A stretch of 64,000 nucleotides of DNA from Gammaproteobacteria bacterium (GTDB lineage: Bacteria > Pseudomonadota > Gammaproteobacteria > GCA-001735895): NCBI GenBank assembly GCA_050118655.1, contig JASFKL010000001.1:186-64185 (forward strand), given 5' to 3'. How positions within the stretch are numbered: the stretch's first letter is position 1; the number at the start of each line of letters is the position of its first letter. Below are positions 25,706 through 27,924 of the stretch, piece after piece. Under the pieces are notes generated by a model. That model was given only the letters and a program-made list of their open reading frames with translations. It ran no database searches and had not been told where the DNA came from. The position numbers were made by a program, and so were the translations under genes.

Positions 25706-25791
25706 TGGTGCGAAAGGAGAGACTCGAACTCTCACATCGTAAAGATACCAGAACCTAAATCTGGCGCGTCTACCAATTCCGCCACTTTCGC
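25706..25791 (-). tRNA. tRNA-Leu (UAG), long-variable-arm type, 86 nt
   Basis: Reverse complement GCGAAAGTGGCGGAATTGGTAGACGCGCCAGATTTAGGTTCTGG...GAGTTCGAGTCTCTCCTTTCGCACCA. Anticodon loop AUUUAGG. Confidence 0.88.
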
Positions 25792-25892
25792 AGTCGTTTC
25801 GTGCCTGCCTGATTACCGGACGCCGTGCCGCGCTCCGCGTCGCCGCGCGGAGTCGAAAACTAACGGCGCCTGCATCGCAGGCGCCGTGTGTA

Positions 25893-25969
25893 TGGGGTGG
25901 ACGATGGGGATCGAACCCACGACAACAAGAATCACAATCTTGCACTCTACCAACTGAGCTACGCCCACC
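25893..25969 (-). tRNA. tRNA-His (GUG), with the extra 5' G(-1)
   Basis: Reverse complement GGTGGGCGTAGCTCAGTTGGTAGAGTGCAAGATTGTGATTCTTGTTGTCGTGGGTTCGATCCCCATCGTCCACCCCA. Confidence 0.92.
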
Positions 25970-25975
25970 ATAATT

Positions 25976-26052
25976 TGGCACGCCCGGCAGGATTCGAACC
26001 TGCTACCCTCGGCTTAGAAGGCCGATGCTCTATCCAAATGAGCTACGGGCGC
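25976..26052 (-). tRNA. tRNA-Arg (UCU)
   Basis: Reverse complement GCGCCCGTAGCTCATTTGGATAGAGCATCGGCCTTCTAAGCCGAGGGTAGCAGGTTCGAATCCTGCCGGGCGTGCCA. Confidence 0.92.
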
Positions 26053-26056
26053 TTCG

Positions 26057-26194
26057 GATACCTCTCTCACGGCGTATTTTAGCCGATTGCTGCGTTGCCG
26101 CCGTGCTCGGATCCTCATGTATGTCTTTATACACTGCGGTCCTGCGCGCGGCGGCGCCTTGCACTCAACTAAAATACGCCGTGAGAGAGGCATC
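26057..26194. repeat. 138-bp element bounded by 26-nt inverted repeats (25/26 match) in the tRNA-Pro/tRNA-Arg spacer
   Basis: Left arm GATACCTCTCTCACGGCGTATTTTAG (26057-26082). Right arm CTAAAATACGCCGTGAGAGAGGCATC (26169-26194). The 86-nt interior is GC-rich. The element begins 4 nt from the tRNA-Arg 5' end. Confidence 0.7.
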
Positions 26195-26395
26195 CTCCAG
26201 TTCAAATTCCGACCGGTCATCCTAAACCTTTTGTATCCCCGGATTGCCGCCGTAGGGGAGGCAACCTGGATTCGTCTTGCCGGCGATAATTCCATTAATA
26301 TACGCGCCAATCGCGTATTCGGATGCCGGGAACCTGCCGTTTCCTCGAACCCCCGATATCCGGGGTGCAATGATAGCAAATTCCCGACAAAATTG

Positions 26396-26472
26396 GTCGG
26401 GGTGGAGAGATTCGAACTCCCGACCCACTGCTCCCAAAGCAGTTGCGCTACCAGGCTGCGCTACACCCCGTG
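26396..26472 (-). tRNA. tRNA-Pro (UGG)
   Basis: Reverse complement CGGGGTGTAGCGCAGCCTGGTAGCGCAACTGCTTTGGGAGCAGTGGGTCGGGAGTTCGAATCTCTCCACCCCGACCA. Confidence 0.9.
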
Positions 26473-26538
26473 TCACCCGCGCGGGCAAGGCGCGGAATCA
26501 TACGCCTAAGCCGACAGGCCGTCAATTCGACCCGGTCT

Positions 26539-27924
26539 CTACTTTCGTCTCCAGCGGGTGCCCTCGGGGCCGTCTTCGATCTCGATGCCGGCGGCGGACA
26601 ACCGGTCGCGTATACGGTCGGCCTCGGCCCAGTTCTTTTGCCCGCGCGCCTGCAGGCGTTCCTCTACCAGCGCCTCGATTTCGGCATCGTCGAGACCGCT
26701 CTCCCGGCCCGCCCGGGATTTCAGAAATGCCTCCGGATCGTCCTGCAACAGTCCGATCACGCCGCCGAGGTAACGCAACAGGCTGGCGAGTTCGTGAACC
26801 CGCTCGTCGCCGGCGCGCTTCGCGCGGTTGATATCGCGCACCAGGTCGAACAGCACGGCTACGGCGCCCGCGGTATTGAAATCGTCGCAAAGCGCCGCAT
26901 CGAAACGCTGTTGATATTCGCTCTCGGCCGCTATCTCTGCGCTGCGCGTATCCAGCAACGCCGCGTACAGGCGCTGCAGGGCGGCGCGCGCATGGTCCAG
27001 CTGCTCCTCGGAATAGTTCAGCTGGCTGCGGTAGTGGCTGCTGACGATGAAGTAGCGAATTTCTTCGGCGCGATAACTCTCGAGTACGTCTCGCAGGACG
27101 AAAAAATTACCCAGCGACTTGGACATTTTCTCTTCGTTGACGCGCACGAAGCCATTGTGCATCCAGTAATTGACGAACTTTTCGCCGCTGCAGGCCTCGC
27201 TCTGGGCGATTTCGTTTTCGTGATGGGGAAATTGCAGGTCCTGGCCGCCGCCGTGGATATCGAAGTGATTACCGAGCAGGCTGGTCGACATCGCCGAACA
27301 CTCGATATGCCATCCCGGCCGGCCCGGCCCGTAACGCGAAGGCCAGCTCGGTTCGCCCGGCTTGGCGGCCTTCCAGAGCACGAAGTCGAGCGGATCCCGC
27401 TTGCCGGGATCGACCTCGACTCGCTCGCCGGCGCGCAACTCGTCGAGCTTCTTGCCCGACAGGCGGCCGTACTCGGCAAATTTCGAGACCGAGAAATAAA
27501 CGTCGCCATTGTCCGCCAGGTAAGCGTAGCCGCCTCGCTCGAGCTCCTCGATCATCCCGAGGATCGGTGTAATGGTCTCGGTGGCGCGCGGCTCGCGGTC
27601 GGGGCGCAGGACTCCGAGTGCGTCCGCGTCCTGGTGCATGGCCTCGATGAAGCGCCCGGTCAGGCTGTCGACTGCCTCGCCGTTCTCGCGCGCCCGGTTG
27701 ATGATCTTGTCGTCGATATCGGTAATGTTTCTGACGTAGGTCACGTCGTAACCCAGGTGCTTCAGAAACCGGTAAACGACATCGAACACTACCAGTACGC
27801 GGGCATGACCGATATGGCAATAGTCGTAAACCGTCATCCCGCAGACGTACATCCTGACCTTGCCGGGCTCGATCGGTTCGAAGGCTTCCTTTTGCCTCGT
27901 CAGGCTGTTGTAGATGGTCAGCAT
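26539..27924 (-). CDS. cysS: cysteinyl-tRNA synthetase
   Basis: Translation [17 protein letters not shown]...[18 protein letters not shown] (HIGH motif) and KMSKSLGN (KMSKS motif), 461 aa. Confidence 0.94.

Follow-up and report, generated by a model that had tools for sequence, protein, structure and literature searches.

What is the long inverted repeat that lies directly upstream of tRNA-Arg in this tRNA cluster? The window analyzed here, i.e., the whole stretch of 64,000 nucleotides, carries the repeat in the spacer between tRNA-Pro and tRNA-Arg, which a sequence-only reading had put at ~340 bp and which measures 341 nt (26053-26393). That reading had proposed either a processing determinant for RNase III or RNase E in the tRNA precursor or a miniature inverted-repeat element (MITE) inserted in the operon spacer. 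Here, we consider the repeat through its fold, its conservation in related genomes, and its likeness to known RNAs and mobile elements.

All six tRNA genes of the window are on the minus strand, and the order of transcription around the spacer is Pro(UGG), spacer, Arg(UCU), His and Leu(UAG). The cluster lies between cysS (26539-27924, minus) and tig-clpP-clpX; the surrounding genes are cysS, ppiB and an lpxH-like gene upstream and tig-clpP-clpX-lon downstream, and there is no conserved partner gene for the RNA module near the locus. Since a promoter-like site precedes tRNA-Pro and a terminator-like hairpin follows tRNA-His (Table 1), the RNA is most simply part of a Pro-X-Arg-His transcript. 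The terminator-like hairpin is strong and separates tRNA-His from tRNA-Leu (25863-25887, minus), and tRNA-Leu may therefore form a separate transcription unit. In one strain that is otherwise near-identical (L002, 300-356), the His-Leu spacer past this hairpin is swapped for unrelated sequence. At the other end of the unit, an A/U-rich stretch is found directly 3' of tRNA-Pro in the window (26350-26393, minus) and in the orthologues of all relatives, followed by a small hairpin, likewise conserved, that surrounds a GATATC or TATCAT motif (in the window CCCCGGATATCGGGG); its possible roles are those of an internal promoter or a signal for processing. A sigma-70 promoter inside the element itself, made of the TAAAAT of the 3' arm or the apical TATAAA, was considered and rejected, as there is no conserved -35 element and the promoter scan reports none.

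Table 1. Features of the Pro-Arg spacer and the surrounding tRNA genes, with positions in the window.
Feature	Position	Strand	Evidence
Structured RNA module: 140-nt rod and 3-nt linker GAA, directly 5' of tRNA-Arg	26053..26195	-	Covariance model R1 163.3 bits, E = 9e-32; fold z = -10.85; covariation
P1 5' strand, RNA positions 1-31; base GGAUGCCU and top UAUUUUAG conserved, positions 9-19 hypervariable	26165..26195	-	Repeat, fold, alignment
P1 3' strand, RNA positions 110-140; pairs with 26165-26195; G.U at 5/136	26056..26086	-	Fold, covariation
Apical domain: P2 (UGC/GCA), P3 (variable, covarying), P4 (GGACC/GGAUCC), P5 hairpin	26088..26163	-	Alignments A2, A3
Conserved loops of the apical domain: GAGUGCAAGG, GCGCGCAGGACCGCA, GAGGAUCCGAGCAC, CAACGCAGCAAUCG	within 26088..26163	-	Alignments A2, A3
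tRNA-Pro(UGG), first gene of the unit	26394..26470	-	tRNA gene prediction, Rfam
tRNA-Arg(UCU)	25976..26052	-	tRNA gene prediction, Rfam
tRNA-His(GUG)	25893..25968	-	tRNA gene prediction
tRNA-Leu(UAG)	25706..25791	-	tRNA gene prediction
Promoter-like site TTGACG-17-TATGAT, 5' of tRNA-Pro	26497..26525	-	Consensus scan only, 10/12 consensus matches
Terminator-like hairpin, 11 bp then UAGUUUUCGA, 3' of tRNA-His	25863..25887	-	Consensus scan only
Remaining Pro-Arg spacer: A/U-rich AUUUUG after the tRNA-Pro CCA, then small hairpins	26196..26393	-	Sequence, locus comparison

The repeat search found inverted arms of 35 nt (26056-26090 and 26161-26195) that are 89% complementary, separated by 70 nt, and share an identical 22-nt core (CCTCTCTCACGGCGTATTTTAG). 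When the tRNA strand is read as RNA, the arms pair without a break over 31 bp, 3 of which are G.U pairs. The arms had previously been given as 26 nt with a perfect 26-bp stem; the pairing is present but longer, and it is perfect at the RNA level, through G.U pairs, and not at the DNA level. The interval 26056-26195 (minus strand) folds as a 140-nt near-complete hairpin, a single rod of -96.7 kcal/mol, compared with -52.8 +/- 4.1 kcal/mol for shuffled sequences (z = -10.85), and 0 of 200 shuffles folded as well. The repeat search and the fold prediction, a check suggested by the sequence-only reading, confirm that the inverted repeat beside tRNA-Arg is real, and it is more pronounced than first noted. 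The basal helix stops 3 nt (GAA) short of the mature 5' end of tRNA-Arg(UCU), and instead of a loop, three further helices fill the region between the arms.

Using the Tig protein as an anchor, we collected 70 orthologous loci from species-representative genomes and 17 from metagenome assemblies. The close relatives are all metagenome-assembled genomes (MAGs) of uncultured Gammaproteobacteria, among them the Olavius algarvensis Gamma3 endosymbiont (Tig 80% identical). A homologous element, full or near-full, was found in at least 12 related sequences from other MAGs and metagenomes (L007, L015-L018, L020, L031, L033, L085, L094, L096), always placed exactly alike, 3 nt upstream of tRNA-Arg(UCU), in a locus with the order Pro-X-Arg-His-Leu between cysS and tig. 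The homologues score 92-164 bits with R1; the elements of L020 and L093 are identical, and those of L010 and L032 are partial, clipped by contig ends. Two contigs that are 99.7-99.9% identical to the window (L001 and L002) both carry the element, with a single substitution in L002 that turns a U-A pair into U.G. The spacer comparison that had been proposed as a check thus gives an orthologous element in relatives both near and further away. The final ~30 nt of the remaining spacer (26196..26393, ending …GGUCGGAAUUUGAACUGGA) are also conserved with L007, L016 and L020.

Among species, the arms diverge yet stay complementary, as seen for the window (CUCUCUCACGGCG/CGCCGUGAGAGAG) and L007 (CUUUCUAAGGGGC/GCCCCUUAGAAAG). 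In alignment A2, which holds nine sequences aligned by unguided MAFFT, the RNAalifold consensus has 53 pairs in five helices, and 22 of these pairs show compensatory double changes. Paired cells make up 95.5% in A2 and 82.9% in shuffles, the covariation score is 0.366 vs. 0.132 and was reached by 0 of 500 shuffles, and pairing falls to only 32-43% when the partner strand is slid by 1-3 columns. Alignment A3, with twelve sequences of one clade aligned to the covariance model R1, gives 96.4% paired cells and double changes in 25 pairs. This is unusually strong covariation support given so few sequences.

Conservation is unevenly distributed over the element. The base of P1 (GGAUGCCUUU/AAAGGUAUCC), its top (UAUUUUAGG/CCUAAAAUA) and the four loop motifs of the apical domain (GAGUGCAAGG, GCGCGCAGGACCGCA, GAGGAUCCGAGCAC, CAACGCAGCAAUCG) are nearly invariant across species, while interspecies identity is only about 50% in the central parts of P1 and P3. 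P1 of the homologues is a 29-31-bp helix with a small internal loop, and optional extra hairpins are present at fixed sites in L017, L032, L033, L085, L087 and L096. As judged from these alignments, the compensatory changes, the mosaic conservation and the fixed-site inserts together are the mark of a functional structured RNA and neither of the end of a transposon nor of a palindrome in DNA.

A long near-perfect dyad symmetry could also act as DNA, i.e., as a cruciform, a protein-binding dyad or a recombination site, in which the arms are kept matched by template-switch correction of quasipalindromes. Intra-strand templated repair could in principle change both arms together. However, such correction would erase any asymmetry between G.T and A.C mismatches, yet on the tRNA strand there are 31 G.U cells vs. 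4 A.C cells, the latter being G.U on the opposite strand. One G.U pair, the fifth of P1 (5/136), is conserved in 10 of the 11 homologues with letters at this position and is A-U in L096. In addition, the conserved internal loops are not symmetric, the short inner helices P3 to P5 covary too, and pairing of the antisense strand is not equally conserved. A DNA-level palindrome is for these reasons extremely unlikely. The excess of G.U over A.C cells assigns the pairing to the tRNA-sense strand, and selection on the structure acts at the RNA level, on this strand. This, together with the promoter- and terminator-like sites, supports the earlier suggestion of a double-stranded structure within the Pro-Arg-His precursor.

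The insertion of a MITE or another dispersed palindromic repeat (REP/ERIC-like) into the operon spacer was the second proposal made from the letters of the window. The element does resemble MITEs and Correia/ERIC repeats in its size of about 140 bp, its terminal inverted repeats and its location in a transcribed intergenic region, and in addition it is patchy among relatives and MAG contigs often break at the locus. In contrast to these repeats, it is single-copy at an orthologous site. Within the 64 kb of the window, no further match to the arm core was found even when 3 mismatches were allowed (0 expected by chance), and a second full copy was detected by R1 neither in the window nor elsewhere across the 94 loci scanned. 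An exact 19-nt arm core matched 0 of 185,579 species-representative genomes, plasmid and phage records gave no BLAST match to the element, and one scan of viral contigs with the conserved core motif was likewise without a match. The arm scan of metagenome contigs returned six matches, of which five are chance 19-mers without a second arm and the sixth is L007, the orthologous locus. The two flanks, …CUGGA| and |GAAGCG, show no target-site duplication, the element has no compositional anomaly and the locus no transposase gene, and L012 holds a deletion remnant and not a clean empty site. Compensatory arm changes are not expected of transposase-bound terminal repeats, and a MITE is therefore unfit to explain arms that evolve in compensation while the conserved, asymmetric internal loops stay fixed and the G.U pairs are strand-asymmetric. 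It had been stated beforehand that arms confined to this site, with an identical spacer in related strains, would argue against a mobile MITE; in the searches above the arms have no second site, and the element is present in L001 and L002, so this holds largely, if not wholly. We give the MITE proposal next to no credence.

The comparison with known RNA families and site classes also placed the element outside those tested. Rfam 15, with 6S, SRP, YrlA and ribozymes among its families, returned only tRNAs at the gathering threshold, and for the element alone at E <= 10 it returned generic miRNA-precursor hairpins (22 bits vs. a 170-bit threshold) and Metazoa_SRP (8 bits). 6S RNA is a ~180-nt rod whose large central bubble imitates an open promoter, whereas the element has no central bubble, the largest internal loops of the consensus structure being a few nucleotides per strand, and no match to RF00013. 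Intrinsic terminators or attenuators consist of a G+C-rich stem and a U tract, but here the helix is followed by GAA and tRNA-Arg, and the terminator scan found only a 5-bp sub-stem inside an arm. Integron attC-like sites carry R''/L''/L'/R' boxes (RYYYAAC…GTTRRRY), while the element ends in GGATGCC…GGTATCC and the locus has no integrase. By inspection, K-turn, loop E and CsrA-type motifs gave no convincing fit to the conserved loops. The 5' arm (GCCUUUCUAAGG) resembles the anticodon arm of tRNA-Arg, whose anticodon loop has its complement in the 3' arm; we treat this as chance because it applies to only some species and not to the window, L017, L031 or L033. The 31-bp P1 does have the property of an RNase III stalk, i.e., at least ~20 bp of double-stranded RNA formed from the flanks of a stable RNA.

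In the literature, we found no relevant described motif adjoining tRNA genes. The sequence comparisons support well that the element is a new, previously undescribed structured RNA family in a tRNA operon, and within the loci searched the family is confined to one clade of uncultured Gammaproteobacteria. Nearest in kind are the processing stalks of RNase III and those RNAs, stable or regulatory, that are carried on tRNA precursors, and the element is a member of no family tested.

The history of the module suggests frequent turnover. In the neighbour-joining tree of Tig, carriers and non-carriers are interspersed. L012 has the apparent stump of a deleted hairpin (GGATG|AAGGTTGCGAA), whereas L016, L020, L093 and L094 have an additional upstream copy with damaged P1. 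L007 carries three more decayed tandem units of ~100-155 nt upstream of the intact RNA (927-1381, plus-strand coordinates), and one of these units, which is the actual match of the metagenome scan, has at 1149-1183 an arm identical in sequence to that of the window's copy. That a decayed unit of L007 shares the arm of the window suggests an old tandem array that was resolved differently by lineage. The module has thus been repeatedly deleted, tandemly duplicated or decayed in sister lineages. More distant relatives have Pro-Arg spacers of only 11-35 nt (L054, L055, L059, L065, L071, L072). In a more distant subgroup (L035, L036, L038 and L040), a different conserved Pro-Arg spacer of about 180-200 nt is found (e.g., L035 2811-3011); it forms several different hairpins and does not match R1, so these spacers were rejected as homologues and may represent another spacer RNA.

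Such turnover raises the alternative that the element is non-functional debris of tandem duplications in the tRNA-Arg region, with the stem as a slowly decaying by-product of an inverted duplication. This would agree with the frequent losses, with the tandem partial units upstream of the main copy in L007, L016, L020 and L096, and with a possible, faint likeness of the 5' flank to the T-arm and 3' end of a tRNA. However, decay would break pairs, yet 96% of the cells are paired and 22-25 pairs have compensatory changes, pairing is held across lineages whose Tig is only 72-84% identical to that of the window, and the loop motifs are nearly invariant. We therefore regard debris as very unlikely.

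Several other irregularities were seen at the locus. Contigs of MAGs and metagenomes end very frequently in or beside the hairpin or tRNA-Arg (L010, L019, L021, L025, L027, L032, L034, L080, L095), and L015 has a run of N there (2700-2760); the locus is an assembly breakpoint, probably owing to the palindrome, the tandem copies or strain heterogeneity. In L024 (1927-2595), a second tRNA-His and tRNA-Pro lie inverted a short way upstream of the usual Pro-Arg-His-Leu cluster, the result of either an inverted duplication or a chimeric assembly. The end of the spacer and the first 17 nt of tRNA-Arg (GCGCCCGTAGCTCATTT) are tandemly duplicated upstream of the intact tRNA-Arg in L041 (1-143). In one lineage (L083 and L084, 860-2938; Tig 82% identical), tig follows a CHASE5/PAS histidine kinase gene and not the tRNA cluster, and synteny is broken.

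A second element affects the same tRNA gene. In at least 12 related loci, tRNA-Arg(UCU) is split between anticodon positions 34 and 35 (after U34) by an insert of 233-688 nt (L011 284-1040, L022 2471-2945, L024 2644-2955, and further L026, L028, L029, L030, L073, L081, L087, L089 and L091), and these split genes were missed by ARAGORN. By eye, the insert has the R and S boxes that are hallmarks of group I introns, and its match to Rfam Intron_gpI (25 bits, E = 1.4e-4) falls short of the gathering threshold. The insert of L011 encodes a PD-(D/E)XK homing endonuclease (PF11645, E = 1.7e-39), and that of L073 holds a similar, putative reading frame. Intron-bearing alleles are usually without the hairpin, and this near-exclusivity likely comes from co-conversion of the flanks during homing. 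The hairpin was also considered as a decoy or relic of the homing site that would be mutually exclusive with the intron, but this was rejected: L087 and L088 carry both, and the two elements therefore do not exclude each other mechanistically.

How such an RNA would be made can be proposed from the layout of the operon. [quoted passage not shown] If RNase P cuts at the 5' end of tRNA-Arg, the rod would end in a 3' tail of 3 nt, and such an end should be very resistant to exonucleases. P1 is long enough to be a likely substrate of RNase III, comparable to a processing stalk that excises a stable RNA, such as the flanking stem from which RNase III excises the scRNA of B. subtilis (PMC1935012). 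It is thus plausible, and in this the first proposal of the sequence-only reading is partly right, that the 31-bp helix serves as an RNase III or RNase E determinant, but this reading leaves the nearly invariant apical internal loops unexplained. The conserved asymmetric loops in the apical 80 nt most likely serve to bind a protein, and a released RNA would for this reason probably accumulate and act in trans. On balance, we favor a vertically inherited, structured non-coding RNA module of ~140 nt in the tRNA-Pro/X/Arg/His precursor that is probably released and likely binds protein.

A serious rival is a purely cis-acting leader, in which the rod serves only the maturation or dosage of tRNA-Arg(UCU), either as an RNase III entry site that parts tRNA-Pro from Arg-His or as a stable helix that masks the leader from position -4 and beyond and throttles RNase P on a rare-codon tRNA. 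In synthetic constructs, hairpins that sequester the 5' leader of a tRNA block bacterial RNase P, while unpaired positions -1 to -3 give partial access (PMC8925977), and this inhibition is what makes the rival serious. The invariant 3-nt spacing to the 5' end of tRNA-Arg and the conserved base of P1 agree with a cis role, as does the finding of every known copy at one locus. On the other hand, a processing stem would have no need of an apical structure of ~80 nt whose asymmetric loops are nearly invariant, sister lineages mature the same tRNA-Arg with unstructured spacers of 11-130 nt, and the upstream partial copies of L016 and L020 retain the apical core and not an intact P1. We consider an exclusively cis-acting role rather unlikely, and the superfluous loops and the partial copies that keep the core favor instead the released, protein-binding RNA. 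Since close relatives lack the module (L012, L045 and every intron-bearing allele but one), it is dispensable, and any function would be non-essential.

A more far-reaching version of the released RNA is that the rod represents a new class of stable, trans-acting ribonucleoprotein RNA made by tRNA-processing enzymes, with invariant loops that would bind a conserved cellular protein. RNase E or RNase III would trim its 5' side and RNase P its 3' side, its two rapidly evolving helical segments could drift freely, and the class would be specific to the clade of Gammaproteobacteria related to marine sulfur oxidizers and symbionts. We put this forward tentatively, as a possibility we would not yet bet on.

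If the RNA is made and stable, the few non-tRNA products of tRNA operons in bacteria would be joined by a structured family. The module is also a defined substrate for asking how RNase P handles a helix of 30 bp that stops 3 nt from where it cuts and whether RNase III contributes to the processing of gammaproteobacterial tRNA operons. The hosts are uncultured sediment bacteria and relatives of gutless-worm symbionts, in which non-coding RNA biology is almost blank. In addition, the loss, duplication and decay of the module next to a group I intron make the locus a compact natural experiment on how RNA elements come and go.

Among known systems, the 3'ETS of glyW-cysT-leuZ and the spacers of metZWV in E. 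coli are sRNA sponges that derive from tRNA-operon spacers. The element would likewise be a by-product of pre-tRNA, freed by tRNA maturation nucleases and maybe with a life of its own. However, RNAs of the 3'ETS-leuZ type are short, largely unstructured and Hfq-dependent, while the element is a 140-nt structured rod with covarying helices and conserved loops. The tRNA cluster of phage T4 encodes species 1 and species 2 RNAs, which are small, stable and of unknown function. These are also non-tRNA RNAs of ~140 nt that are co-transcribed with tRNAs and cut out by tRNA-processing enzymes, as predicted for the element, but the latter is chromosomal, specific to one gammaproteobacterial clade and without a match in the phage records and viral contigs searched. 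Synthetic RNase P riboswitches share the stable hairpin just upstream of a tRNA with -1 to -3 alone unpaired (PMC8925977); the element, in contrast, is natural, far longer and has no known ligand, and its 31-bp helix is unlikely to open upon ligand binding. RNase III stalks, as in rRNA operons and the scRNA precursor of B. subtilis (PMC1935012), resemble the element in that the flanks of a conserved RNA pair over more than 20 bp inside a larger stable-RNA precursor, and in that the helix sequence drifts while pairing is kept. Unlike the known stalks, the element encloses only about 80 nt, and its putative stalk lies in a tRNA operon with the 3' side abutting the RNase P site.
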